DNA of 59,260 nt from a virus. Taxonomy: Duplodnaviria > Caudoviricetes. A program made the position numbers and the translations under genes. Positions within the stretch are counted from its first letter, which is position 1, and each line of letters begins with the position of its first letter. The notes below the pieces were generated by a model. The model searched no databases. It was given only the letters and a program-made list of their open reading frames with translations, and had not been told where the DNA came from. The stretch lies in IMG/VR virus record IMGVR_UViG_3300027741_000071, positions 1 through 59,260 of that record; one strand, 5' to 3'. Of the stretch, positions 1 through 59,209 are shown one piece after another.

Positions 1-26
1 AAAATAAAAGAAAAGACATTTAGACC

Positions 27-52
27 GTGTCTTCTATGTCTTCTGGTACAAA
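27..52 (+). repeat. 26-bp iterated element GTGTCTTCTATGTCTTCTGGTACAAA (candidate origin/packaging iteron)
   Basis: Exact reverse complement at 59089-59114, 1-mismatch copy at 59185-59209, partial copy at 59003-59025. Confidence 0.85.
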
Positions 53-64
53 TGGAAAATCGTA

Positions 65-95
65 AGGCGACCGTCAGAAAGTATGTGCATTAATA
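65..95 (+). promoter_or_regulatory. Putative late promoter AGGCG-N16-TGCATTAATA
   Basis: Same bipartite motif and spacing as sites at 2794, 6471, 10784, 25459, 31666 and 49339(-). Confidence 0.7.
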
Positions 96-100
96 TGGGC

Positions 101-406
101 GTGAGATATCAATACCAAATAAAAGAAGTTTTAAAAACCTCTAGGGGTTTGATTAGCGGGTTTCGCGTGTTGGTTGTGGTCGAAGACCTGGAGCACCACA
201 TGGTAGACGTGCCCGCAGAAATTTTTGAGTATGAAACCTTGGTGTACTTCAGGTGCCGGCTAAAGATGTACCAAAAGGTAGATATCCAAAAGTTACCTTT
301 GTCAGTTCAATATAAGATTAGAATGCCGTTAGCGCATTTCCTAGATTTATGGGTCTTAACAGAAAACAATGGCTATTACAGCAAACGAAAAAATACTGAC
401 GCTTGA
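101..406 (+). CDS. Hypothetical protein
   Basis: ORF 83..406; GTG at 101 preferred because it lies just downstream of the promoter motif. Confidence 0.55.
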   Translation: MRYQYQIKEVLKTSRGLISGFRVLVVVEDLEHHMVDVPAEIFEYETLVYFRCRLKMYQKVDIQKLPLSVQYKIRMPLAHFLDLWVLTENNGYYSKRKNTDA

Positions 407-1358
407 TTATTGGAAACGCGCTGACAAACTGGTTGAAGGCGATTTTATTTTTGATAGGAATGGAGACCTGCGTAAGGTTACGTTAATCCAGCACTTTCAA
501 TCCAAATGCTATGAGGTGCACCTCAGTGACTTGCTGACTGTCAGCGGTAACGCGTCCATGCATTTTTTGTTGGAAACGCCTAAGTACAGGAAACGGCTGG
601 CAGAGTACAAGGGCAAGCGCCAGTTTATGCGCCCGTTGATTTTGGAACCGTTGTCCGGGCTGTTGGATAAGTCGTTGAGGCACAAGAACAACGCGCGTAC
701 GTTCTCAATCCCTACGTGCGGAGCGCTCAAGCTGCCACACCAGGACCTGCCGGTGCCGCCGTTTGTGTTTGGGTACTGGTATTGGAACCGATTGAAGCCC
801 AATGTGTTCTCGGCGCACAAGCTAAACGCCGATGAGGTGTTAGAAAAGTTCCGCAGCCATGGGTATGAGATCATAAAACCAAAAAAACGCAAGGATGGAG
901 CCACGATCTTCAGTGTGTTCCCTACGATTGAGTCACAGCTGGCGCCGTTCATACCCAAAGAGATACCAAACAACTACCTGCTGGGTAGTGAAGAGCAAAG
1001 AATTGAGCTGTTAAGCGGTATTGTAAACGCAAAAATACGACAATACAAGAAAACAAAAGATATTTTTAGAGTTTCTGGCTCACACTGGCCGGAGATTAGG
1101 AAAATCCAGGGGTTAGTAGAGTCATTAGGTAGCAAGACTACACTAAACTTTTACGAAAACTGGAAGCATTACACATTAGGTTTCAGAAACTGTAACCAAC
1201 TGTGTAGTGTTCAGGTGCCGAAGAAAGTTAAGGTGCACCAAGCACGACGGTACATTACTAAAATTGAAGAGTTACCCACGCAACAATGTGTACACATTGA
1301 AACTGACGGGCCTGATGGTTCGTTTTTAGTGGGAGAAGGATTTATCACATGTCGTTAA
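369..1358 (+). CDS. Free-standing intein-like protein (Hint + LAGLIDADG-like), catalytic residues degenerate
   Basis: N-term AITANEKILT..W....L..GD.IFD.NG..RKV..CYEV.LSD resembles intein blocks A/B; DLPVPPFVFG and RIELLSGIVN resemble LAGLIDADG helices; C-term CVHIETDGPDGSFLVGEGFITCR resembles blocks F/G. Confidence 0.8.
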   Translation: MAITANEKILTLDYWKRADKLVEGDFIFDRNGDLRKVTLIQHFQSKCYEVHLSDLLTVSGNASMHFLLETPKYRKRLAEYKGKRQFMRPLILEPLSGLLDKSLRHKNNARTFSIPTCGALKLPHQDLPVPPFVFGYWYWNRLKPNVFSAHKLNADEVLEKFRSHGYEIIKPKKRKDGATIFSVFPTIESQLAPFIPKEIPNNYLLGSEEQRIELLSGIVNAKIRQYKKTKDIFRVSGSHWPEIRKIQGLVESLGSKTTLNFYENWKHYTLGFRNCNQLCSVQVPKKVKVHQARRYITKIEELPTQQCVHIETDGPDGSFLVGEGFITCR

Positions 1359-2794
1359 CGGCAAAACAAGAGCTTCTGTTAAAGAAGTTCGCAGAACAAA
1401 ACAAACAATGGCCAAAGGCGCAGCTCGATGCCACCCTTTGGCTGGTGAAGTACAAGCTATCCGCGCTCCCGCACCAAAAAGAACCGGAGGACGGCGAGTT
1501 TGATACGTTCTTAATGCTGGCCGGCCGCGGTGCGGGTAAGACATGGACGGCGTCTAACTGGATTGGCGAGCGGGCGTGGACTTTTGACAAGACGCGCTGG
1601 TTGGTTACAGCGCCAACAACAAACGACATTCGCGCGACGTGTTTCGAGGGTGACTCTGGGCTACTTAACATTTTGCCACGATCCATCATCAAAGATTACA
1701 ATAAGTCGTTGCTTGAGATTACACTGATCAATGGCTCACTGATCCAAGGGATCCCTGGTTCTGAGCCAGAACGCTATCGTGGTAAGCAATACCATGGGGC
1801 CTGGTTTGACGAGCTGTGTGCGTTTGAGTACATCGACGACGCGTATGACCAGGCGCAGTTTACGTTGCGTTTGATGGACCCACGCATTGGGCGGGTGCAG
1901 CAGATTATCACGACAACGCCGAAGCCGCTCGAGTTGATTGTAGACTTAAACGAGGGTAAGGTGGGCGGCGACGTGTACGTGGCCAACGCCAGCTCGTTTG
2001 ACAACCGCGCCAACTTGTCTGATACGTTTTTCAAACAGTTGGAAAGCTACGAGGGCACCAACCTGGGCCGTCAGGAAATTTACGGCGAGATATTGGATCC
2101 GGAAGAGGCCGGCATTATTAAACGCAAGCAGTTCCGCATGTGGCCAGCCAACAAGTCGACGCCAACCCTTGAGTATGTGATTGCGTCATACGATCCGGCT
2201 ACCAGCGAGAAGACGGTCAACGACCCAACAGCCTGCACGGTGTGGGGCGTGTTTGAGCAAGAGGATGGCCACACGTCGGTCATCATGTTAGACGCATGGG
2301 ACGCGCACTTGGCGTATCCAGAGTTACGCCGCAAAGTTATATCGGACTTCAAGGAAGTTGTGTACGGCGCAGATAACACGTTTGCAAAAGGCCGTAAGGC
2401 TGACTTGTTGCTCATGGAAGACAAGTCTGCAGGTATCAGCCTGATTCAAGAGTTACAAGGCGCCGGCGTTCCGGTGCGTGGATACAACCCAGGACGCGCC
2501 GATAAGGTGCAGCGGTTAAACATCGTGGCCCCGCTGGTTGCTAAGGGCCGGGTGTACATACCGGAGGATCCAGAACAAAAAGGTGAGTTTGCACCGTGGG
2601 CCAAACGATTCATACGGCAGGTGTGTTCGTTCCCTGAAGCCAAAGGGCACGATGACTACGTGGACTCACTGACACAAGCGTTGCGCGTGTTACGTGATTC
2701 AGGATGGTTACAACTCGATCCGTTGCCTGCAAGAGATTACTCATACATTGACGACCAGTTGGCGCGCAAGTTCTCCAATCCATACGCACAGTAG
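1349..2794 (+). CDS. terL: Terminase large subunit
   Basis: Walker A GRGAGKT, Walker B AWFDE, TTTP motif, nuclease motifs SYDPA and HDDYVDS. Confidence 0.95.
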   Translation: MSLTAKQELLLKKFAEQNKQWPKAQLDATLWLVKYKLSALPHQKEPEDGEFDTFLMLAGRGAGKTWTASNWIGERAWTFDKTRWLVTAPTTNDIRATCFEGDSGLLNILPRSIIKDYNKSLLEITLINGSLIQGIPGSEPERYRGKQYHGAWFDELCAFEYIDDAYDQAQFTLRLMDPRIGRVQQIITTTPKPLELIVDLNEGKVGGDVYVANASSFDNRANLSDTFFKQLESYEGTNLGRQEIYGEILDPEEAGIIKRKQFRMWPANKSTPTLEYVIASYDPATSEKTVNDPTACTVWGVFEQEDGHTSVIMLDAWDAHLAYPELRRKVISDFKEVVYGADNTFAKGRKADLLLMEDKSAGISLIQELQGAGVPVRGYNPGRADKVQRLNIVAPLVAKGRVYIPEDPEQKGEFAPWAKRFIRQVCSFPEAKGHDDYVDSLTQALRVLRDSGWLQLDPLPARDYSYIDDQLARKFSNPYAQ

Positions 2795-2824
2795 GGCGAA
2801 ACACCCTACCGATGTGCATTAATA
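2794..2824 (+). promoter_or_regulatory. Putative late promoter GGGCG-N16-TGCATTAATA, overlapping hairpin GTAGGG..CCCTAC (2791-2809)
   Basis: Conserved bipartite motif; ATG 10 nt downstream. Confidence 0.75.
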
Positions 2825-2834
2825 GAATTAGAAT

Positions 2835-3383
2835 ATGAACCTAATCAAATCACCCCACGAGTTGTTGATGGAACAAGCCGGCCTCCCGGGTTATGCGGGC
2901 GGTCATTCGGTGTCACCAGAACAGATGAAGGTGGAGCTAATGATCAACGGCCACAAGGTACATCAAAGCGAACTGCCACACGATCATCCGTTGATACAGC
3001 ACTTTGCGGGGGGTAAGGAGGTAAAACCTCCGATTGATTTAACGCGTCGTTATGATCCGATCAATATTAATTTACAAGAAATGCGGGCAAAACAATTGCC
3101 CCCTAGTTCGTTTGAAAAGTTTTCTTCACGTTTAGGTTCTTTGTTGGGTCATGGGTTAACGTTTGGCATACCTGCGTATGACGTGGCAGAACAGTTAAAA
3201 AATAATAACATTGGCGGCGCGCGTGAAAGTACGCTCGATGCTGCGATTGGTTTGGCTCCGTTGCCAGTGCAAGCTGGATGGGCTGCGTTAAAGCCAACAG
3301 AATTAAATACCGGCGAAGACGAAATGATGAAGCAAATCCATCAAATGCAAGATCAAATGCTCGCAAACAGAAAAGTTAAATAA
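2835..3383 (+). CDS. Hypothetical late protein with YAGG/FAGG motifs
   Basis: 182-aa ORF between terL and portal; GYAGGHSV and HFAGGKEV motifs. Confidence 0.75.
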   Translation: MNLIKSPHELLMEQAGLPGYAGGHSVSPEQMKVELMINGHKVHQSELPHDHPLIQHFAGGKEVKPPIDLTRRYDPININLQEMRAKQLPPSSFEKFSSRLGSLLGHGLTFGIPAYDVAEQLKNNNIGGARESTLDAAIGLAPLPVQAGWAALKPTELNTGEDEMMKQIHQMQDQMLANRKVK

Positions 3384-6232
3384 TGGCAAATCCAAAATTA
3401 CCGATTCAAATGGGTGGCAGCTTGCCGTCTTTAGATTCTAAAACAGATCAAGAGATTGCAGAGGGTCAGCTTCAGGAGCAAGAAGTTGCTGAGCTTGAAG
3501 ACTATTTGGGTTTAGATGAAGATGAGGCAGAGGGTGAGATTATTGAACTGGAAGACGGTTCAGTAGTTGTTAACCTTGAGCAAACTAAGGGCCCAAAAGA
3601 AAGCCCTGAGTTTTATGCTAACCTTGCGGAAGTGTTTGATGAAAGCTATTTGGATCAATTGGCCCAAGATTATTTGGACTTTATTGATGAAGATAAAGAA
3701 GCTAGAAAACAGCGCGATAAGCAATATGAGGAGGGCTTACGCCGCACTGGTTTGGGTAAGGACGCTCCTGGTGGTGCTACTTTCGACGGTGCTTCTAAAG
3801 TTGTTCACCCTGTTATGGCAGAGGCTTGTGTAGACTTTGCTGCAAGCTCGGCCAAAGAATTATTGCCACCTGAAGGCATTGCTAAGACAAACATCAAGGG
3901 TGCTATTGATCGTTTGAAGTTGGAAGTTGCTGAACGTAAGGTTACGTTCTTAAACTGGCAGCTGTCGGAACAGATTCCTGAGTACCGCGACGAGATGGAG
4001 CAACTGCTAACTCAACTGCCATTAGGTGGTTCGCAGTTCTTGAAATGGCGCTGGGATTCAGAGCAACGCAGGCCAATGTGTGAGTGGATCCCGATCGACA
4101 ACATATTGTTGCCGTACGCATCCACAAACTTCTACACATCACAGCGCGCGACTGAAGTACAAGACATTACAGAGGATGTATTCCTCCAACGTATTGACGC
4201 GGGTATCTACCGCGAGATCGATGCGTCTTACACGTCAGACACGCCGCTTGATGACCAAACGCAATCTGAAAAAGCCAACAACAAAATTGAAGGCAAAGAA
4301 AGCTCTGGTAAAAACATTGATGGTTTGCGTCGTGTTTATGAGATTACGTGCTTCTTGCGTTTGGATGATGACGATACAACTGAAGGTCGTCGTGCACCTT
4401 ACATTTTAACAATTGATGAGTCGTCAAGCAAAGTATTGAGCTTGTACCGTAACTGGGCTGATGGCGACGACAAATTTGAAAAGCTAGATTGGTATGTTGA
4501 GTTTAAGTTCATCCCATGGCGCGGCGCATATGCTATTGGCTTACCTCACCTTATTGGCGGTCTTAGCGCTGCACTTACTGGTGCTCTTCGCGCGCTGCTT
4601 GACGCAGCTCACATTAGTAATAGTCAAACGATGCTCAAGCTCAAAGGCGGGCGCATCGGGGGCCAGTCGGACCGTATTGAGCCGACTCAGGTGGTTGAGA
4701 TTGAGGGTGCACCAGGTGTAGACGACGTCCGCAAGCTGGCTATGCCGCTGCCGTTTAACCAGCCTTCCAGCGTATTGTTTAATTTGCTGGGCTGGTTGAC
4801 TGACGCGGCTAAGGGTGTAGTTACCACAGCCGAAGAAAAAATTGGCGAAGCAAACAACAACATGCCTGTGGGAACAACCCAGGCGTTGATTGAGCAGGGT
4901 GCTAAGGTATTCTCAAGCATCCACGCGCGCTTGCATCGCAGCCAGGCTAAGTCATTAAAGATTATCTCCCGTATCAATAACTGGTACTTGAGCGAGATGG
5001 ACAATCAGTCTGGTGAAGAGATTGAGGTTCGTGACTTTGCATACAACAGCGATGTGCGTCCGGTATCGGACCCCAACATATTTTCTGAGACACAACGTCT
5101 TGCACAAAACCAAGCCTTGTTGCAAATGGCAACCGCGGCGCCTCCCGGAATGTTTGACTTGCGTGCTGTGTACAGCCGTATTGTTCAACAGCTAAAGATC
5201 CCCGAGGCCGATGAGATTTTGCCAAACCCACAAGGTGCAAAAGAATCCAACCCAGCGTTAGAGAACGTTTCAATGACGATGGGTCGACACGCAGCTGCTT
5301 ATCCAGACCAAGACCATATTGCACACCTAGATGTTCATTTAGAGTACGCAGAGAATCCAGTGTATGGTGGCAGCCCGGTCATTGGCCCAACGTTTACGCC
5401 GATGGCGTTAGAGCACATCAAGCAACACTTGATGCTGTACTACCTCCAGTCTATGCGTAACATTGTGGCGAAAGCGTCTGGTGGAAAAGACGTGCTTGAT
5501 TTACACGAAGAGAAGACATTAGATTGGGAATCACAGCAGGCTTTGGCTTTAGGCTCAAAGATTGTTGACCACGAATCCCAGAAGATCTTACAACCATACA
5601 TGCAGCGAATTATGGTGTTGGTGCAGAAGGTGCAGCAAATGCAACAAGCACAACAGCAATCAGCTATGAACGCCGACCCGACTGCGCAGGTGTTGATGAA
5701 GACGCAAATGGCAGAAACTCAACGTAAGGCACAAGAGTTCCAAACCAAGATGCAAACTGAGTTGCAACAAGCCCAACAGGATTACCAACTCAAAGTGGCT
5801 GAACTGCAGCAAAAGGTGGCAGAACTACAGACTAAGTATCAAACGCAGACAAATATTGACAACCAGCGCAATGCGACCGATATTGCAATGGCAAATATTA
5901 ATAACTCCGCGCGCGAACGAGTGGCTTATATTCAAGCCGGTGCTCAGATGGACCAGCAACAAGCTCAGTTAGAACACGAGCAAAACATGTCAGCGATCGA
6001 GGCAATTGATGCCGCGAGTGCAGACATTAGACAGCATGGTTTAGCTATTGAACAGCAAAACTTCCAGCAACAAGCTGATATGGTAAACCAACAAGCCCAG
6101 CAACAAGCTCAGGCAGACATGGCAAACCAACAACACATGCAACAGCTGCAACAAAACGACCAGCAACACGCTCAAACGCTGGAACAAAACTATCAACAAC
6201 CTGAACCACAACCTCCCGAAGGACAACAATAA
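3383..6232 (+). CDS. Portal protein (P22-like) with Gln-rich coiled-coil C-terminus
   Basis: 949 aa after terL; FYANLAE, GASKVVHPVMAEACVDF and PVGTTQALIEQG motifs typical of this portal family. Confidence 0.88.
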   Translation: MANPKLPIQMGGSLPSLDSKTDQEIAEGQLQEQEVAELEDYLGLDEDEAEGEIIELEDGSVVVNLEQTKGPKESPEFYANLAEVFDESYLDQLAQDYLDFIDEDKEARKQRDKQYEEGLRRTGLGKDAPGGATFDGASKVVHPVMAEACVDFAASSAKELLPPEGIAKTNIKGAIDRLKLEVAERKVTFLNWQLSEQIPEYRDEMEQLLTQLPLGGSQFLKWRWDSEQRRPMCEWIPIDNILLPYASTNFYTSQRATEVQDITEDVFLQRIDAGIYREIDASYTSDTPLDDQTQSEKANNKIEGKESSGKNIDGLRRVYEITCFLRLDDDDTTEGRRAPYILTIDESSSKVLSLYRNWADGDDKFEKLDWYVEFKFIPWRGAYAIGLPHLIGGLSAALTGALRALLDAAHISNSQTMLKLKGGRIGGQSDRIEPTQVVEIEGAPGVDDVRKLAMPLPFNQPSSVLFNLLGWLTDAAKGVVTTAEEKIGEANNNMPVGTTQALIEQGAKVFSSIHARLHRSQAKSLKIISRINNWYLSEMDNQSGEEIEVRDFAYNSDVRPVSDPNIFSETQRLAQNQALLQMATAAPPGMFDLRAVYSRIVQQLKIPEADEILPNPQGAKESNPALENVSMTMGRHAAAYPDQDHIAHLDVHLEYAENPVYGGSPVIGPTFTPMALEHIKQHLMLYYLQSMRNIVAKASGGKDVLDLHEEKTLDWESQQALALGSKIVDHESQKILQPYMQRIMVLVQKVQQMQQAQQQSAMNADPTAQVLMKTQMAETQRKAQEFQTKMQTELQQAQQDYQLKVAELQQKVAELQTKYQTQTNIDNQRNATDIAMANINNSARERVAYIQAGAQMDQQQAQLEHEQNMSAIEAIDAASADIRQHGLAIEQQNFQQQADMVNQQAQQQAQADMANQQHMQQLQQNDQQHAQTLEQNYQQPEPQPPEGQQ

Positions 6233-12986: not shown

Positions 12987-15900
12987 ATGGCTGATCAAAG
13001 TATAACCCAACTACCAATTGCTTTTAACCTTACTGGTAATGAGCAAACTGTTGTCGTACAAGGTGGTGTTACAAAACAGGCTTCTGTTTCGCAGATTGCC
13101 AATGCCGCTTCGCCAGGAAAATTAATCACCAATGTAAGTTATAACCCTGAAAACGGAGATTTAACATTTTATTATAGCGATGGTAGTAATGCCACGGTGG
13201 GGCCGGTTTCGGGTTCTTCTGGTGCTACCGGATCGTCTGGATATAGCGGATTTTCAGGTTACAGCGGCAAATCGGGTTATAGCGGCTATAGCGGCTCTGG
13301 CTTAAGTGGATATAGCGGTATCGGTGTAAGTGGTTATAGTGGTTTTAGTGGCTACAGTGGCGCCGGTGTAAGCGGTTATAGTGGATACAGTGGCGCGGGT
13401 GTTAGTGGATACAGCGGTAAATCCGGCTATAGCGGATATAGTGGATCTGGTGTAAGCGGCTATAGTGGCTACAGTGGCGCGGGTGTGAGTGGATACAGCG
13501 GATATAGCGGCGCGGGTGTAAGCGGTTATAGCGGGTATAGCGGATCTGGTGTAAGCGGCTATAGTGGATCTGGTGTGAGCGGTTATAGTGGCTATAGTGG
13601 TGCTGGACTTAGCGGTTACAGCGGATATAGCGGCGCGGGTGTAAGCGGTTATAGCGGGTATAGCGGATCTGGTGTAAGCGGCTATAGTGGATCTGGTGTA
13701 AGCGGCTATAGTGGCTACAGTGGCGTGGGTGTAAGTGGATACAGCGGATATAGCGGCGCGGGTGTAAGCGGTTATAGCGGGTATAGCGGATCTGGTGTAA
13801 GCGGCTATAGTGGATCTGGAGTAAGCGGCTATAGTGGCTACAGTGGCGCGGGTGTAAGTGGATACAGCGGATATAGCGGCGCGGGTGTAAGCGGTTATAG
13901 CGGGTATAGTGGATCTGGTGTAAGCGGCTATAGTGGATCTGGTGTAAGCGGCTATAGCGGATACAGCGGATCCGGTGTAAGCGGCTATAGTGGATATAGC
14001 GGATCTGGTGTAAGCGGCTATAGTGGCTCTGGCGTAAGTGGTTACAGCGGAACTTCCGGCTATTCTGGTTCCTCAATAGCAATTGGCGGAACTAGCACGC
14101 AACTCCAGTATAACAATTCTGGAGCGTTGGGCGGTGTGGCAAACATTACTTATAATGGCTCAACTACAACGCAAACAAGCGGGACAATTGACGGAACAAC
14201 TATTGGCGGCACAACCCCTGCGGCTGGTACGTTTACTACGTTAATTGGCGGCGGCGGTTCAGCTAACTACATCCAAGCGACAGGCGGGGCTACAACTAAA
14301 GCAGTTCAGTTTCAAACGCTTGGTAGCGATGCGGCTGTATCCCTAGCCATACAACCCAAAGGCACAGGTGCAATAGACCTAGCGGCTGGTTCTAGCGGTG
14401 TGAACATTTCTAACGGTGGTACGGTTACTGCGCTGACAAGAACTGCTGGTGGTGCAGGATATACATCCTATCCAAGTGTTGCTATTTCAGCTCCCACTAC
14501 AGCTGGTGGTGTACAAGCTACTGCGACTTGCACGGTGATGTTTAACGCCGCGGCGACTATTGCAAGTGGTGGCACAGGATACACGGTTGGCGATGTGCTA
14601 ACAATGGTTGGTGGAACCCCAACGTCAACTGGCGGTACATTTACCGTTACAACTGTATCTTCTGGCGCTGTAACAGGGGTAACAGCAAATTCAAAAGCAT
14701 ACACGGCATTGCCATCTAACCCAGTTTCAACAACTGTTAGTCCCGCAGGCGGAACTGGTTGCACGTTAAACGTCACATATTCTATTGACCCCGGTGGTCT
14801 AACAATTGGAACAGCAGGTTCTGGATATGTTGAACAGCCAACGGTAACAATTAGTGGTGGCGGCGGTAGCGGCGGCACTGGCTATGCTACTGTGGGTAGT
14901 GTTCCAAAGATTACAAGTCTTGGTGGTGATTTATCGTTTTATACACCAGGCGGTGAGGCATTTCGTGTAGCGGATATTGGTGGTACAACAGTTAACTATG
15001 TAAGCGTTAGGGGAGATACCTCCACTGGAAATACGCCAAAAATTATAGCGGCTGGAGCAAGTGGAACTTTAAATTTAGCTATTTCTAGTAAATCTTCTGG
15101 CGCTATAATTTTTTATACCAATAGTTCTACAAACACTCAGATGCAGGTTACTCACACAGCATCATCAGTTAACTACGTACAGGTGACGGGTGCGGCTACT
15201 AATAGCGGCCCAGAAATATCATCCCAAGGTAGTGATACTTCTGTTTCCATTAACTACACTGCAAAAAATGCAGGAAACCACATCTTTAAACAGGCTGGCG
15301 GTACTAATTTTAGGGTTAACTACAGCGTAACGGCACCAATAAATTATTTAGCAGTAACTGGCTCATTGACTGGTAGCAGTCCTAGTTTATATAGTCAAGG
15401 CTCAGACACAGACATTGACCTAACCCTAACACCCAAAGGCGCAGGAACTGTTAAAACTTCAGGAACAGGTATTAGGCTTGTAGGCGCTTCTTCTGGTTAT
15501 GTAGGCTTAAAAGGCGCTGCTGCTGCGGGTTCTACTACATATCAATTACCTGCTGCTGATGGCACAAGCGGGCAGGTTTTATCTACTAACGGTTCTGCAG
15601 TACTATCTTGGGCTACTGCCAGTGGTGGTGGAGGGGGAACGCCGGGAGGTTCAAGTGGGCAGCTTCAATATAATAACAGCAGCTCATTTGGCGGTGTAAC
15701 AAACGTTACGGTTACTACAGGGCAGACGACTGCAAGAATAGACCCTAGAGTTTCCGTTGAATCAAACTCAGCAACCAGTGTCACGCCGGACATTAGTTTG
15801 TATGATATGTATGTGTGGACTGGGTTGTCTACCGCTGGAACTTTAACAATCAATATTCCGTCAGGAACCCCACTAAACGGCGATAAATTAATGTTTAGAA

Positions 15901-20614: not shown

Positions 20615-22114
20615 ATGGCAGCTTCAGGCTATACAAAATTACAATTATATTATAGCTCGACGTCGGGAGTCGCGCCCACAGGTACCAACTTGATCGCCGG
20701 AGAGTTGGCGCTTAACACTTTTGATGGGAAGCTGTACTTTAAAAATACAAGTGGTGCGGTAACCTTGCTGGCCTCTGCAGCTGGGGCGGCTGCGGCCACT
20801 AATATTTTTGGTGGCGCGTCCGGCCAAATCCCGTTCCAAACGGCTGCAAGCACAACCAGCTTTATCACAGCCCCTGGAACCTCTGGCACGTATTTAAGCT
20901 GGAACGGATCCGGTTTTTATTGGTCTAATGGACTCGGATTGTCGGGAACCAGCGGATATTCAGGCTTCTCTGGATTTAACGGCGCCAGTGGTTTGTCGGG
21001 CTTTAGTGGCTATTCCGGCATTTCTGGTTATAGCGGCTACAGCGGATATTCTGGCAATAACGGAACTAGCGGTTTTTCTGGTTATAGTGGAATTTCTGGT
21101 TATAGCGGTTTTAGTGGAATCTCTGGCTTTAGTGGTATTTCTGGCTTCAGCGGCTTTTCTGGTTACAGCGGTTCCGGTACTTCGGGCTACAGCGGTGCAA
21201 CCGGCACATCCGGTTTCAGTGGTTATTCGGGATTAAACGGCGCAACAGCAGCATCCGGATTTAGCGGTTACAGCGGCTATTCTGGATTCTTGGGTAACTC
21301 GGGATATTCAGGCTTTAGTGGCACTTCGGGCTACAGTGGTTCTGGCATTTCAGGCTACAGCGGATTCTCAGGCTATTCTGGCTTAGGGTTGTCTGGTTAT
21401 AGCGGCGGTAGTGGTTACAGCGGTTTAAACGGCACTTCAGGCTATTCCGGCATTTCTGGCTACTCGGGGTACAGCGGCTCTGGCGTGTCCGGCTACAGCG
21501 GTTTTAGTGGCATCTCGGGCTATTCTGGCACGACACCAACCGCGGTGGCAAACTTGTCCGGCGGATCTGTTGGCGCGCTGCCCTACCAATCAGCTGTTGG
21601 CACAACATCATTTTTAACTAACCAAACCGGTAGGGTTTTAGTTGGTGGTGCGGCTACGCCCTCATATGCCTTGCAGTCGAGTTTATCGGTTGGTTCGGCA
21701 ACAAACGTTTTGGGCGGCAACGCAAACCAAATTCCTTATCAATCTGCGACTGACACAACAGCGTTCATTACTGCACCGACAACGGGTTCTACATCAAATC
21801 CTGGTTTTGTGGCTTGGAACGGCACTGGGTTTGTTTGGTATCGTTGGTTGACTTTCTTAACATCCAGCAACATTAACGGCTCGTTAGGTTATACTGCGGC
21901 GGATGCGGCTGGTTCAAACGCTACGGGCACATGGTCAATTAGTATTACAGGTAACGCAGCAACAGCAAATTCGGTGGCCAACACTGGCGGCTGGAGCGTG
22001 ACACCAAGCGGCACTAAATTGTATTTTTCTTACAATGGCGTAAACGTGGGTTCTTTGGATTCATCCGGAAACTTCATAGCTAAAGCTAACGTAACAGCTT
22101 ACGGCACACCGTAA
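20615..22114 (+). CDS. Second fibre protein with Gly-Tyr/Phe-Ser collagen-like tract
   Basis: GELALNTFDGKLYFK head-binding-type N-term, (GYS/GFS)n tract, NVTAYG C-term. Confidence 0.8.
   Translation: MAASGYTKLQLYYSSTSGVAPTGTNLIAGELALNTFDGKLYFKNTSGAVTLLASAAGAAAATNIFGGASGQIPFQTAASTTSFITAPGTSGTYLSWNGSGFYWSNGLGLSGTSGYSGFSGFNGASGLSGFSGYSGISGYSGYSGYSGNNGTSGFSGYSGISGYSGFSGISGFSGISGFSGFSGYSGSGTSGYSGATGTSGFSGYSGLNGATAASGFSGYSGYSGFLGNSGYSGFSGTSGYSGSGISGYSGFSGYSGLGLSGYSGGSGYSGLNGTSGYSGISGYSGYSGSGVSGYSGFSGISGYSGTTPTAVANLSGGSVGALPYQSAVGTTSFLTNQTGRVLVGGAATPSYALQSSLSVGSATNVLGGNANQIPYQSATDTTAFITAPTTGSTSNPGFVAWNGTGFVWYRWLTFLTSSNINGSLGYTAADAAGSNATGTWSISITGNAATANSVANTGGWSVTPSGTKLYFSYNGVNVGSLDSSGNFIAKANVTAYGTP
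20935..21530 (+). repeat. Low-complexity coding repeat (SGY/SGF)n
   Basis: About 200 aa of G-x-S triplets; boundaries approximate. Confidence 0.85.
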
Positions 22115-22123
22115 GGAAAAACT

Positions 22124-23290
22124 ATGGCATTACCTACCGGTACCATATCACTGTCGGACGTTAACACCGAGTTGGGGTACAGCTCGACTGCACTAATTTC
22201 ACTAAATGACGCCGCCGTGCGCGCGCTCGCCGGTGTGGCAAGCGGTGCTATCAGTATGAGTGATTTGCAAGGGAAGTCGGCCCAAACTCCTGCTATTGCT
22301 TTAGCGACTTATGGCAGTCCTAACATACTTGCGTATCCTTGGTCAAGTTCCACTGGTTTTGGCACAAAGTATGCTAATCCGGCCACGCTCCCAACGGGTA
22401 ATGCAAATGGAATCGCGTTCAGTTCTGACGGAACGGCTATTGCTGTAGCTCACACAAGTACCCCATACGTAACCGCATATCCTTGGTCAAGTTCTACCGG
22501 TTTTGGCACAAAATATGCTAACCCATCTTCGCTTCCACCGGGTATTGGGCGCGCAGTTGCGTTTAGTGCTGACGGAACGGCTATTGCTGTAGCACATTTG
22601 ACGTCCCCATACATAACTGCCTACCCTTGGTCTAGTTCCACTGGTTTTGGCACAAAGTATGCTGATCCGACTACACCCCCAACGGGTAATACAAATGGAA
22701 TCGCGTTCAGTTCTGACGGAACGGCAATTGCTGTAGCGCAAACAAGTACCCCATACATAACTGCTTACCCTTGGTCAAGTTCTACCGGTTTTGGCACAAA
22801 ATATACTAACCCATCCTCGCTTCCGCCTGCGACTGGAAATGGAATTACATTTAGTCCTGACGGAACGGCTATTGCTATAGTGTGCGCAACAACACCATAT
22901 ATAAATGTTTACCCTTGGTCAAGCGCCACTGGTTTTGGCACAAAGTATGCTAATCCGGCCACGCTTCCTTCAAACATTACAAATGGAGTTGCGTTTAACC
23001 CTAGCAGTACGACCCTTGCTGTGGCGTACATATCTTCACCCTATATATCTGCCTACCCTTGGTCAGGAGCGGGTTTTGGCACAAAGTATGCCAATCCAGC
23101 AACGCTTCCGCCAGCTTTTGGAAATGGCGTTTCATTTAGTGCTGACGGCAATGCCGTTGCTATAACGCACGCAACATCCCCATACGTAACCGCGTACCCT
23201 TGGGCAAACGCCACGGGTTATGGAACAAAGTATGCTAATCCGTCCACGCTTCCGACAGGCACGGCATATGGAGTTTCTTTTAAATCTTAA
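22124..23290 (+). CDS. Fibre-tip adhesin with 7 near-identical ~46-aa repeats (putative beta-propeller)
   Basis: ISLSDVNTELG..ISLND..VR.LAG..ISMSDL.GKS attachment-type N-term; seven YPW...GFGTKYANP units. Confidence 0.78.
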   Translation: MALPTGTISLSDVNTELGYSSTALISLNDAAVRALAGVASGAISMSDLQGKSAQTPAIALATYGSPNILAYPWSSSTGFGTKYANPATLPTGNANGIAFSSDGTAIAVAHTSTPYVTAYPWSSSTGFGTKYANPSSLPPGIGRAVAFSADGTAIAVAHLTSPYITAYPWSSSTGFGTKYADPTTPPTGNTNGIAFSSDGTAIAVAQTSTPYITAYPWSSSTGFGTKYTNPSSLPPATGNGITFSPDGTAIAIVCATTPYINVYPWSSATGFGTKYANPATLPSNITNGVAFNPSSTTLAVAYISSPYISAYPWSGAGFGTKYANPATLPPAFGNGVSFSADGNAVAITHATSPYVTAYPWANATGYGTKYANPSTLPTGTAYGVSFKS

Positions 23291-23299
23291 AGGAAAATC

Positions 23300-23554
23300 A
23301 TGGAAAATCAAACACGCGAACAAATTTTGGCAGCATCTTTGGATGCCCGAGTGCAAGAGATAATGCTCTACCAAATTAATATTGACAACTACACGTCGGC
23401 GTTGGAGGTGATTGAAAGCCTTCCCGAACAAGATCGTGATGAATTAAAAGTATTTGCTAATCAACTTCAAAGCCTGTTGGCGTCCGAGATATTGGAACAG
23501 AAAAAAGCCAACATTATGTTAACGGTTGTTAAGAAACAACTTACAGCAGGATAA
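23300..23554 (+). CDS. Hypothetical helical protein
   Basis: 84-aa ORF with AAGGA RBS. Confidence 0.7.
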   Translation: MENQTREQILAASLDARVQEIMLYQINIDNYTSALEVIESLPEQDRDELKVFANQLQSLLASEILEQKKANIMLTVVKKQLTAG

Positions 23555-32137: not shown

Positions 32138-35100
32138 TCCGTTACAAGAACTTGAGAATACCGTTAACGGTTTTGGTGGAATAATCTTGGGGCTTCCCGG
32201 TTCTACTAAAAAAATACTTAATGGTGTTGGGAGCGCATTTAACGCTGTAAATAAAACAGTGGACGCAATACTTCGCAACCCGCTGCCAACTATTGAAACG
32301 GTAGCATTAACATCTTTAGGTGTTCCGCCAATAATTGCTAACGCAGCAGTGGCGGCGGCAAACGGCGGCAACATCAATCAAATAGCTTTATCTGCGCTTA
32401 CGGCTTATGCAGGTAGCAAAATAGGTAGCTACGCAGCCGGCGCAGTTGGAACTGAAAGTGCGTTGATTAAGCAAATTGTTGGCAGCTCATCTGGCATGGC
32501 TGCTGTTGCTGTGTTAAAAGGGCAAAATCTTCAGCAGGTATTAACCGCTGGTGCAACTGGTGCGATTAACGCAACTATATCAAATCAACTTGCACAACAA
32601 GGTTTTACAAAAGTAGATAACCAAATCCTTTCAAACGCCTCAACGGCAGCAATTAAAGCTGTACTTGGCGGTAAAGACATAGGCGCTGCTATTGGTGCAT
32701 CGGTTGCATCTACAGCTATCCAAGCTGCGTTGTCTGGAAAAATAGACCAGATAAATAAAAACAATGAGATGGGTAAAGGTTTAGTTAGTCAATATACTAA
32801 ACTTAGTTCTCAAGCCAGCGATTGGTTCAATAAGAATCTTGCGCCAACTCAAGACAAAGAAAACCAACTTTATAATTCTTTACAAACTGACCAAAACCAA
32901 TATAATAAATCAAAGATGGAATATGATAGTGCCGTTAATAGGTACAATTATTATTCAAAGTTTTCGGGGGATTATTACGTAAATACGGCTGCAAAAGAAG
33001 TTGAACTTGCCAATTCACTTGTAGACAAAATGAATTTGCTAGGCGCAGATATGTCTACAAAATCTGAAGAGTTTTCCAACGTACATGCCGAAGCTGAAAA
33101 AGATAGACAGTATTACAAATCTACGTATGAAAATCCATTAACTTCTATAACCAATAAAGTAGAAGAAATAAATAGGGCAAACGATTACGAGTCAAAAAAT
33201 GTTGGCTATTTAGTTGCTAGGTACGAAGATCAAATTACTAAAGACCAAACCAACATAGTTTCAGCTATTGCCAAAGACGCAGTAAAAGAAGCTCAAGATT
33301 TGTTGCAAAAACAAGCTGAGCCTACACCTGCACCTGCACCTGCACCTGCACCTGCACCAACACCTGCACCAGAACCAACACCTGCACCTGCACCTGCACC
33401 TGCACCAGAACCAACACCTGCACCTGCACCTGTTGCACCAGAACCCACACCAGTAGCACCAGAACCCGCACCAGTTGTCCCGCAGCCCGCGCCTACGCCA
33501 TCCGTTCCGCAATTTACGCAACCTGATTCCGAGCTTGTTGGCGCTGAGGCGCAGGACGATGGAACGACTGTTGAAAAATTTGCCGATGGAACAACGCAAG
33601 TTGTTGACTCATTGTCTGGTAAAATTTTAAGTCAAACAGCACCAGCACCGGTGCCTGAACCAGAAGCACCGACTGGTGGATTGGATGTGGTAGCACCAAC
33701 ACCAGCATCCGAACCAGTACCTGAATTAAAAGCGCCAACTCGTGGATTAGATGTAGTAGCGCCCCCAACACGAGAACCGGTGCCTGAACCAGAAGCGCCA
33801 ATGGGTGGATTGGATGTGGTAGCACCCCCAGCACCCGAACCAGAACCAGTGCCTGAACCCGAAGCACCAATGGGTGGGTTGGATGTGGTAGCACCTCCAA
33901 CACCAGAACCGGTGCCTGAACTAAAAGCGCCGACCGGTGGGTTGGATGCAGTTGACCCAATTGTGAATCAAGAGGCTCCTGTTGAAACTGCACCTCCAAG
34001 CACTTTGGACACTGTGGTACAGACCAATCAAGACGCGCTAAATACAGCAATCACTTCTAATAACCCCGATTTAGTGGACGCTGTAGTTAACGGCAACGAA
34101 GATGTTATTACTGCTTTGGCAAACGGCGATGTTGACGCAGCTACTAATTTAATTGGCGGCGCAGACACCAGCGTGCCTGATATGCCTGATGTTCAACAAC
34201 CTGAAGAAGAGCAGCCACCTGAAGAAGAGCTGGATACTAACGTCCCCGGTTTGCCATCTATTGATCAGACCGTTGAAGAAGAGCAGCCACCTGAAGAAGA
34301 GCAGCCACCTGAAGAAGAGCAGCCACCTGAAGAAGAGCAGCCACCTGAAGAAGAGCAGCCACCTGAAGAAGAGCAGCCAGACGATGGCTTTGGCCCTATA
34401 AGAATTCCAAGTGGCACGGGCTCAATATCAACGCCAAAACCACCATCAAGACCCACGTCGGCACCAACAATAGCACCAGCACCGGCACCAACAATAGCAC
34501 CAGCACCGGCAGGAACAAACACTATGAGCACAACTGGAACCAGCGGGTACCAAGACCCCAAATTAGATTTTACGCCGCATCTTGTAAAGGGCAGCGCAAT
34601 CAATTTAGTTGGACAACCAACGTTTCGGGAAATATACACCCCGCAACAACAAGCGCAAGCCCCGTCGCCTTACACAGACGGCATGATGGGTTACGCGGAA
34701 GGCTCGTCTGTCAGCATGCAGCCCCAATTTACCCGCGGGCGCGCTCAATTTTTGCAATCAATGTTGCACCCAATGGCTCGGCCACAAGTCGGGCCACAGC
34801 GTTTTGAAAGCCACAGCGAAGGCCACGAAGTTGGTGAACACCAGCCAGAGTTTTATAGCGAAGGTGGTTTAAAATCAATCGAGAACAGATACGTTACGGG
34901 CGACGGCGACGGCACCTCCGACTCGATTCCAGCTATGTTGGCCAACGGTGAGTTTGTTATTCCCGCTGACGTTGTGGCAAGTTTAGGCAACGGATCAAAT
35001 GAATTCGGTGCCTCCGTGTTGGATCAGTTTATGAAAGCTATTCGCGAGCATAAACGCGACGCACACCCCGATCATTTACCGCCTGATTCAAAAGGGCCGT

Positions 35101-58828: not shown

Positions 58829-59046
58829 GCTCTACTCCACATTCCAAGTAAAAGTCCCCATAGCACCCCCACACAGAAGGCCATGGCCATGTGCCAAAGG
58901 TACTCGTCGTGATCCCTTGGCGTCAAACTTGGGTACTTTTCGTTGGGAAATGCCTGCTCCAAGGTGCGAGAAAACCTACGAGTTGTAGGGTTAATTTCCT
59001 CTACCCTGTCTTCTGGTACAAATGGTTGTACTACTTTAGGTTGCAT
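58825..59046 (-). CDS. Hypothetical early protein with C-terminal TM
   Basis: TTRRFSRTL.QAF motif; GGAG RBS. Confidence 0.65.
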   Translation of the reverse strand: MQPKVVQPFVPEDRVEEINPTTRRFSRTLEQAFPNEKYPSLTPRDHDEYLWHMAMAFCVGVLWGLLLGMWSRA

Positions 59047-59088: not shown

Positions 59089-59209
59089 TTTGTACCAGAA
59101 GACATAGAAGACACCCTTCTTTATTCTTTTTTTATTTTTTTTTTAAAATAAAAAATAAAAATAAAGGAATAGTGTAAATGACCCTGTCTTCTATGTCTTC
59201 TAGTACAAA
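59089..59209. repeat. Large inverted repeat around a T-tract/A-tract core (candidate replication origin)
   Basis: Arms at 59089-59114 and 59185-59209 enclose an almost pure A/T, partly self-complementary spacer. Confidence 0.8.

Follow-up and report, generated by a model that had tools for sequence, protein, structure and literature searches.

The viral record IMGVR_UViG_3300027741_000071 of IMG/VR, a linear stretch of 59,260 bp that is rated 91% complete and is referred to here over its whole length as the window, carries directly upstream of its large terminase gene (terL) an open reading frame (ORF) with the architecture of an entire intein, in which an N-terminal Hint region (Hint-N), a basic insert, a LAGLIDADG domain and a C-terminal Hint region (Hint-C) follow one another with no exteins on either side. 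This gene, which we call the ex-intein, comprises 329 codons in an intact frame and shares its last 10 nt (1349..1358) with terL, as had been reported in the first-pass annotation of the stretch, while the terminase encoded downstream is itself free of inteins. Based on alignments, structure prediction, selection and synteny, we conclude that the gene is very probably a domesticated, free-standing former intein.

Searches of Pfam, NCBIfam and the PDB sequences with the ex-intein returned no match, and PHROGs matched it only through positions 81-311 of a TerL profile of 1330 positions (E 1.8e-9), all PHROG matches being confined to the intein part of TerL profiles. Searching 50,697 phage records by tblastn, however, aligned residues 2-326 with embedded inteins of 164 records, 147 of which covered at least 80% of the query, with an identity of 23-26% among the matches listed. 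The annotated host genes among these listed matches, all of them larger, encode a terminase large subunit, a DnaB helicase, a Cas4-type exonuclease or a hypothetical protein. As residues 2-326 match inside larger genes, the whole ORF is homologous to inteins, and the end-to-end alignment together with the structural model described below bears out the initial view of an intein without exteins.

For a comparison at the residue level, the ex-intein and five of its relatives were aligned with the inteins of Acidovorax phage ACF1, Mycobacterium phage LittleE, Escherichia phage ECD7 and Clavibacter phage CMP1 including their extein flanks, and blocks A, B, F and G as well as both LAGLIDADG motifs could be placed against these four TerL inteins, a check that the first-pass annotation had proposed. 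All four true inteins interrupt the Walker A loop between GK and T, and they carry DH(L/I)W in block B (THEW in CMP1), P..C(I/V).V in block F and PTHN, followed by the extein T, in block G. The available sections of the description of class 3 inteins list as their marks a non-nucleophilic residue 1, the set Trp B:12/Cys F:4/Thr G:5, Thr or Ser at position +1 and a terminal Asn, with insertion mostly at P-loop sites including those of terminases (PMC2807308). At position -1, where the true inteins have an extein Lys, the ex-intein has its initiator Met, and residue 1 is Ala2, corresponding to Ala in LittleE and ECD7, Cys in ACF1 and Asp in CMP1.

The residues required for splicing and for DNA cleavage have largely disappeared. 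In block B, A-D-H-L-W is replaced by A-S-M-H-F, with His B:10 changed to Met64 and Trp B:12 to Phe66. The first LAGLIDADG motif reads GYWYWNR instead of GYWLGDG (GVWLGNG in ACF1, GAWLGDG in CMP1) and the second GIVNAKI instead of GIMDSDG (GLMDTDG or GIMDTDG in two of the inteins), so that Asn140 and Lys222 occupy the catalytic Asp positions and neither motif retains the acidic metal-binding residue of LAGLIDADG enzymes. These losses had all been recognized at the outset. In contrast, the block F cysteine, which had been listed as lost, is retained, as the F:4 Cys of the true inteins has its counterpart in Cys307 (QQCVHIE), which does not vary in the alignment (A1). In block G, P-T-H-N corresponds to T-C-R-stop, that is, Cys328-Arg329-stop in place of Thr-His-Asn. 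The original description of the terminal His-Asn as CR is therefore right in that Thr-His-Asn is gone and wrong in treating CR as its replacement, since the stop codon stands at the position of Asn G:7 and the conserved C-terminal Cys (Trp in some members) is an artefact of the overlapping terL start (A-TG-T). Likewise, the ORF ends one residue short of the intein end and not, as assumed, right after block G. With a start at intein position -1 and a stop at the position of the terminal Asn, there is nothing left to splice. The in-frame insertion between N- and C-exteins that defines an intein is missing, and Ala1 and Cys F:4 are the only parts of the class 3 signature still present, there being no +1 residue.

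An AlphaFold2 (AF2) model built from 119 sequences reached a predicted local distance difference test score (pLDDT) of 94 and a predicted template modelling score (pTM) of 0.90. Its best fold matches in Foldseek were PI-SceI (E 1e-14, TMq 0.75), the Tli and Pho VMA inteins and PI-PfuI, followed at lower rank by class 3 DnaB mini-inteins, I-DmoI and WhiA; the gp41-1 intein was matched as well. Model and block alignment together reveal a Hint fold with blocks A, B, F and G, and the match to PI-SceI over the whole length, along with that to I-DmoI, shows two LAGLIDADG helices packed as a pseudo-dimer with beta-saddles. Block B is followed by an insert (residues 69-128) with a net charge of +8, at a position that we take to be like that of the DNA-recognition region of PI-SceI. 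Its opening basic stretch ETPKYRKR..EYKG..F.RPL, in which E69 and R74 are invariant and K72, Y73, R76, Y80, F86, R88, P89 and L90 are conserved to at least 90%, ranks among the best-conserved features of the free-standing family (Table 1).

Table 1 Features of the packaging locus and its surroundings in the window
Feature	Position	Strand	Basis or remark
Repeat motif GACCGTGTCTTCTATGTCTTCTGGTACAAA	23..52	+	Further copies at 58993-59022, 59089-59104 (minus strand) and 59180-59209
orf103, conserved small ORF (101-113 aa in relatives)	95..406	+	tblastn in relatives; AF2 pLDDT 83
Free-standing ex-intein gene (Hint-N, basic insert, LAGLIDADG domain, Hint-C; no exteins)	369..1358	+	Alignment, AF2 model, 648-member family
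Block A equivalent, M-AITANEKILTLDYWK	369..416	+	Met at intein position -1; Ala2 as residue 1, non-nucleophilic as in class 3
Block B equivalent, SGNASMHFLLE	543..575	+	Compared with DHLW, DHIW or THEW of ACF1, LittleE, ECD7 and CMP1
Conserved basic stretch ETPKYRKR..EYKG..F.RPL	573..638	+	Family-specific; opens the insert (residues 69-128) after block B
First LAGLIDADG helix, PPFVFGYWYWNR	756..791	+	Catalytic Asp position is Asn140; alignment with true inteins
Second LAGLIDADG helix, ELLSGIVNAKI	1005..1037	+	Catalytic Asp position is Lys222; alignment with true inteins
Block F equivalent, QQCVHIET	1281..1304	+	Class 3 F:4 Cys kept (Cys307); alignment with true inteins
Block G equivalent, LVGEGFITCR-stop	1326..1358	+	The ribosome-binding site of terL, GGAGAAGGA (1332-1340), and its ATG (1349) lie within it
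terL, 481 aa, intein-free, Walker A loop GRGAGKT uninterrupted	1349..2794	+	Terminase_6N 3e-18, Terminase_6C 4e-8

The ex-intein is a member of a large family of stable length. A word-indexed search (E <= 1e-3) collected 648 cluster representatives at 90% identity, and among the 120 best homologues, whose identity to the query falls from 96% to 48%, 118 are 320-336 aa long, 116 of these 118 full-length close relatives starting with MA. No fused form of the ex-intein was found in a search limited to longer proteins. A profile search of 1.84 billion representatives gave 9133 matches at E <= 1e-3 and 105 at E <= 1e-30. Above 174 bits, every full-length match (at least 300 aa) is a free-standing protein of 311-337 aa in which profile positions 1-330 coincide with protein positions 1-330, the other matches being shorter free-standing fragments, while embedded P-loop inteins (GK before and T/S after an intein of the form AL..TP ... 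PTHN, in proteins of 600-1900 aa) begin at 171 bits. In a divergent set of 32 free-standing representatives with identities down to 27-31% (alignment A2), 28 of the 31 complete N-termini read M-A (V-A in two, M-T in one), and all C-termini follow ..G(F/Y)(I/L)xxC, xCR or xWH. Columns read by eye showed an acidic residue at the catalytic position of motif 1 in none of the 32 and at that of motif 2 in a single one (P0141), and the F:4 Cys was present in 27. Most members escape Pfam: among 30 divergent ones, LAGLIDADG_3 was matched in three, Hom_end in two and Hint_2 in one. Their database names are 'hypothetical protein' or 'replicative DNA helicase', the helicase label being wrong. Loci of the divergent representatives P0158 and P0143 were not found, and a metagenome scan with P0140 gave only a locus of the main family.

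In a quick IQ-TREE analysis, 33 free-standing and 26 embedded sequences were parted by a single branch with a Shimodaira-Hasegawa-like approximate likelihood ratio (SH-aLRT) of 100. The tree is unrooted, and of 80 embedded hits only the 26 with a single full-length match to the profile entered the embedded set. This topology fits one transition between the embedded and the free-standing form, and from the shared class 3 marks we infer that it probably led from embedded to free-standing.

The position of the gene proved to be as constant as its length. From 324 IMG/VR stretches that matched the ex-intein, 80 loci were chosen by ex-intein similarity; terL lay directly downstream in all of them, and 78 were intact with the overlap. 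From 555 stretches that matched TerL, another 80 loci were chosen by TerL similarity, and in all 71 of those with at least 1 kb of upstream sequence an ex-intein homologue preceded terL, 67 being intact and adjacent. The four exceptions comprise one locus with an intact but separated gene (L142), one with the same gap that is cut by the contig start (L158) and two with a broken frame. Such a distribution is not the sporadic, mobile one expected of a LAGLIDADG homing endonuclease. The ex-intein had a ratio of nonsynonymous to synonymous substitution rates (dN/dS, Nei-Gojobori, NG86) of 0.04-0.08, compared with 0.02-0.05 for terL over the same pairs, and its ratio stayed low down to about 30% identity, dN being roughly twice that of terL. 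The syntenic homologues that the first-pass annotation had suggested looking for thus exist, and the relatives neither lack the gene nor carry only decaying copies of it. In loci whose ex-intein identity to the query has dropped to 33-35%, TerL remains 73-80% identical and the overlap with the terL start persists, so that the gene belongs to one phage lineage, in which it evolves faster than TerL.

At the junction itself, the last ex-intein codons overlapped the terL ATG by 10 or 7 nt in all 14 first-round loci, in the form of ACATGTCGTTAA or ACATGTTAA, and the invariant GEG codons coincide with the terL Shine-Dalgarno sequence GGAGAAGGA at 1332-1340. Synonymous variation was lowest in codons 319-329 (permutation p 0.001) and codons 1-12 (p 0.002), the two overlapping ends of the gene. 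In L142, a 128-aa endonuclease gene (2124-2510; phrog_3322, E 7e-23; HNH or endonuclease VII-like) sits exactly between ex-intein and terL, and the new junction again ends in ..CR-stop over the terL ATG; L158 and L087 have a gap of about 450 nt at this place, similar in size to the L142 insertion. These cases show that the locus is exposed to homing elements. With a dN/dS near that of terL, a fixed position, the coupling to terL and the single tree branch, the domestication part of the original reading, in which a selfish element had been repurposed, is strongly supported.

The lineage consists of phages of about 60-66 kb from freshwater-labelled metagenomes, the strong holders of the ex-intein being freshwater or unspecified metagenomes. 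In a genome collection, loci with ex-intein and terL (six, L200-L205) were confined to contigs of 1-20 kb in Betaproteobacteria or Burkholderiaceae bins. One metagenome-assembled genome bin contained three different copies, which points to phage contigs that were probably co-binned with their host, and the bins give a weak hint of a host among the Betaproteobacteria/Burkholderiaceae. A late-type promoter had been assumed ahead of the gene; in window 1-368, no sigma-70-like promoter was found, and this region is occupied by a repeat motif and orf103. A single 151-nt contig from an RNA library covers window 622-772, which, given possible DNA carry-over, is no evidence of transcription.

The place next to terL raises the question of the small terminase (TerS). 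Across phages, small terminases diverge much more strongly than TerL. Outside the lineage, the closest relatives by TerL are MW202545.1 (51% identity) and Caulobacter phage RW (42%), each of which carries an Sf6-type TerS (PF20901, phrog_1482) upstream of terL, at a distance of 476 nt in the former and with two genes between in the latter. In phage RW (L002), the gene gp097c (2445-3113) is flanked by terS and a methyltransferase gene ahead of the full terL; its product is a 222-aa duplicate of the N-terminal ATPase domain of TerL that is 39% identical to RW TerL. Within the lineage, PF20901 and PF03592 (E <= 1) had no match on G000 (91% complete), G001 (100%) and three fragments, and PF05119, PF16677 and PF11053 (E <= 1) had none on G000, G001, G007 (100%, terminal repeats) and G006 (95%). 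A tblastn search of the window with the TerS proteins of MW202545.1 and phage RW yielded nothing better than E 1.3. These results are suggestive of a lineage without a recognised TerS. None of Pfam, PHROGs and NCBIfam connects the ex-intein with a known TerS family, and like a terS gene it is adjacent and translationally coupled to terL (overlap of 10 or 7 nt in 14 of 14 first-round loci; intact and abutting terL in 78 of 80).

The first-pass annotation had placed the gene in the TerS position, which holds in so far as it lies directly 5' of terL and does not hold in so far as orf103 precedes it in most relatives, so that in the window the operon does not begin with the ex-intein. orf103 was found in 72 of the 80 ex-intein-selected loci (tblastn, E <= 1e-5), overlapping the ex-intein start by 37 or 73 nt among 42 complete unique copies and by 38 nt in the window. 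Unlike the ex-intein, which is always present, orf103 is missing from G001 and G006. The predicted fold consists of three strands and two helices (pLDDT 83), and Pfam, PHROG and NCBIfam gave no match. As a recognisable TerS, orf103 was rejected, as its best Foldseek E was 0.04 and its best VIA-align Z of 5.0 (root-mean-square deviation 4.7, 76 aligned) did not rise above background; the best ESM Atlas score of 0.80 was uninformative.

How the protein might work is suggested by its charge. The free-standing forms (118 close and 31 divergent ones) have an isoelectric point (pI) of 9.5-9.6 and a net charge of about +16, compared with pI 9.3 and +14 for the embedded inteins, which keep their GDG/SDG motifs (n=26), and the positive charge is carried by the LAGLIDADG domain and by the insert behind block B. 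Because the free-standing forms are as basic as embedded inteins and conserve the stretch ETPKYRKR, the nucleic-acid-binding surface of the endonuclease ancestor is predicted to have been kept. The ex-intein would be made together with TerL through translational coupling and would bind nucleic acid without cutting it, serving the DNA-packaging machine as an accessory or as a specificity factor. In this way it may stand in for the small terminase, which these genomes appear to lack, or act as its partner. If it replaced TerS, it would use the surface that once read the homing site to find the start site of packaging and would pass the DNA on to TerL.

Our best-supported guess is thus that the protein binds nucleic acid in connection with packaging, for which the position, the absence of five Pfam TerS families and the basic charge speak; the DNA-binding packaging or regulatory factor of the first-pass annotation is likewise a proposal. 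That the role is tied to TerL or packaging in some way appears probable. An exapted class 3 intein acting as a packaging accessory or specificity factor is, as a whole, the best explanation, to which we give slightly better than even chances. Recognition of pac or other DNA in place of TerS can be put forward only tentatively, and it seems rather unlikely that a dead intein-endonuclease replaced the small terminase in full, which would make it a packaging-specificity subunit of a new structural class and the first case of a virus domesticating an intein.

Several observations weigh against a packaging factor of this kind. TerS was judged absent by means of five Pfam models and of tblastn searches with two relatives' TerS proteins, G000 is no more than 91% complete, and TerS proteins are known for evading detection. 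The TerS could be orf103 itself, in which case the 'TerS position' would not be that of the ex-intein. Known TerS ring folds are nothing like that of the ex-intein. Two of the 71 TerL-selected loci have a broken frame, and the divergence of ex-intein and terL is discordant in some pairs (dS 0.35 for the ex-intein versus 1.19 for terL in L010/L015; also L013/L016 and window/L007), so that some residual mobility or recombination at the junction is possible; the discordance suggests recombination breakpoints between the two genes.

The search for a cis site recognised by the ex-intein also went against this role. The repeat motif at both ends of the window (16-30 nt, core TGTCTTCTGGTACAAA) occurs in four copies, the 16-mer having four matches versus 0.72 expected by chance. 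Among the relatives L014, L017, L010, L033, L067 and L092, repeats lie 320-650 bp upstream of the packaging operon in both orientations, with different 9-bp-periodic arrays among them. Such repeats could represent an origin, an operator or a pac-like array. As binding sites of the ex-intein they were discarded, since motif identity does not correlate with ex-intein similarity: GAAGACATAGAAGAC is common to the window and L014/L017 though their ex-inteins are 47-48% identical, and the L010 repeat differs from that of L014 despite an ex-intein dN of 0.11. The old homing site, the Walker A codons of terL, was dismissed as a binding or pac site because its synonymous-site entropy is not below the gene mean. 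In some headful phages, pac sites lie inside terS genes. A cis site within the ex-intein gene was rejected as well, low synonymous variation being restricted to the overlapping ends and an apparent dip at codons 125-145 disappearing after codon-usage correction.

Among the alternatives, a sequencing or assembly frameshift that cut a real intein from a larger terminase frame can practically be dismissed, as contigs of other sequencing runs span window 24-1879 (0 differences), 922-2511 and 723-1792 without gaps. These junction-spanning contigs exclude the assembly frameshift that had been named as a possible refutation; moreover, terL is a complete gene that includes a Walker A loop of its own, independently assembled loci repeat these gene limits in 78 of 80 and 67 of 71 cases, and no evidence for such an artefact was found. 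Another possibility is that the gene is still selfish, either as a free-standing homing gene with a non-canonical active site or as a recently stranded remnant kept by gene conversion with flanking terL. The discordant pairs (L010/L015, L013/L016), the two broken copies and the free-standing endonuclease genes that do occupy the ex-intein/terL junction are in line with this idea, which we nevertheless regard as highly improbable, since the canonical acidic residues are missing across the family, its occurrence in all 71 TerL-selected loci is anything but sporadic, dN/dS remains at 0.04-0.08 down to about 30% identity, and the free-standing forms all fall on one side of a single tree branch. 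Hardly more probable is a decoy or immunity factor, a cleavage-dead protein that would bind the homing site in the terL P-loop and thus shield it from class 3 intein endonucleases or hamper co-infecting competitors. Its ancestors being P-loop inteins of TerL and DnaB, the uninterrupted GKT site of this terL and the endonuclease gene inserted at the junction in L142, with gaps of similar size in L158 and L087, would suit such a function. However, the terL Walker A codons show no extra synonymous conservation, no closely related embedded intein was found (the nearest are separated by a long branch of 0.88 + 0.43 changes per site), and intein invasion is normally cheap, a poor fit to presence in all 71 loci and a dN/dS of 0.05.

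More weight is due to the proposal that the protein is a regulator and not a packaging subunit, a dead LAGLIDADG scaffold controlling late-gene or terL expression whose position would reflect co-regulation only. WhiA binds DNA as a transcription factor and intron maturases bind RNA, and WhiA (3hyi, 3hyj) is among the fold matches with E about 2e-3; the ex-intein has kept its basic charge, and repeat motifs are clustered upstream of the operon in the window and many relatives. These repeats do not co-vary with the ex-intein (window versus L014/L017; L010 versus L014), though, and the tight translational coupling to terL across the lineage suits a stoichiometric partner better, so that we consider a purely regulatory function unlikely and retain the packaging-linked role as the preferred reading.

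Beyond the packaging genes, the window holds a 949-aa ORF (3383-6232, + strand) with a long Gln-rich C-terminal tail and 50% identity to a 'hypothetical protein' of phage RW that is likewise encoded downstream of terL. Long runs of 9-nt periodic repeats at 13235-14135 and 20932-21528 encode Gly-X-Y collagen-like (SGYSGFSG) stretches in two late genes, a 144-nt tandem repeat in five copies lies at 22323-23309, and a low-complexity coding repeat (PAPAP / EEEQPP) at 33306-34514.

Compared with known systems, the ex-intein resembles the embedded class 3 LAGLIDADG inteins (LittleE gp9/Omega, ECD7 gp17, ACF1 TerL) in full-length homology, Ala as residue 1, Cys F:4, domain order and fold; it differs from them in lacking exteins, splicing residues and both LAGLIDADG Asp residues, and in being a gene of its own upstream of an intein-free terL. 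To our knowledge, yeast HO is the one well-known case of a domesticated intein, and it still cuts DNA. This Saccharomyces protein is a free-standing relative of the VMA1 intein PI-SceI that kept its nuclease and carries a C-terminal zinc-finger extension. As in HO, an intein-derived protein is here a gene of its own, kept by selection for a host function, and PI-SceI is the best fold match of our model. Unlike HO, which is fungal, the viral/prokaryotic ex-intein ends at block G and has neither an endonuclease centre with its catalytic residues nor a C-terminal zinc finger. With WhiA and the LAGLIDADG intron maturases, it shares a LAGLIDADG fold without catalytic acidic residues; they have no Hint domain, and the ex-intein lacks the C-terminal helix-turn-helix of WhiA; the likeness seen is one of fold. 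Sf6-type TerS (PF20901) is similar in its position ahead of terL, its translational coupling and its fast divergence relative to TerL, and differs in that the ex-intein shows no sequence or fold similarity to it and has 329 aa versus 202 and 174 aa in the two relatives.

Proteins of homing-endonuclease families are also encoded beside terminase genes in other phages. HK97 gp74-type HNH proteins, which keep their nuclease activity, share this position with the ex-intein; their fold is different, and the ex-intein appears to be catalytically dead and comprises a whole Hint domain. Many phages encode an HNH endonuclease beside the cos site and the terminase genes, as stated in the available part of PMC3592412, and a predicted HNH gene beside the packaging genes of Skunavirus is mentioned in that of PMC12967558. 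The nearest published case is the 'DnaB' intein Arth_1007 of Arthrobacter sp. FB24, which, in the accessible sections of its description, is class 3-like and of phage origin, has exteins of 52 and 14 aa, lacks His B:10 and does not splice (PMC3196547). Thus, it has the class 3-like character, the near absence of exteins and the loss of His B:10 in common with the ex-intein. According to the same sections, Arth_1007 is a single locus without the F:4 Cys and was judged a decaying pseudogene by its authors (PMC3196547), whereas the ex-intein family has hundreds of length-conserved copies under purifying selection at a fixed operon position and with the F:4 Cys kept. The portion available of a survey of actinophage inteins covers embedded inteins only (bioRxiv 10.1101/2025.01.02.630785). 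A full-text literature search, with supplementary tables outside its scope, found no description of a free-standing domesticated phage intein beside a terminase.

The usual view of inteins is that of selfish passengers whose fate is to splice or to decay. In the present lineage, hundreds of phage genomes maintain under strong selection an entire intein whose two chemistries are both disabled and which is integrated into the terminase operon. If the proposed role is confirmed, this would mean that the Hint and LAGLIDADG scaffold can be exapted in viruses, would provide a natural cleavage-dead, sequence-reading LAGLIDADG protein for study, would correct the database names of the family members, and may reveal a new packaging-specificity factor in a lineage without a recognisable TerS.

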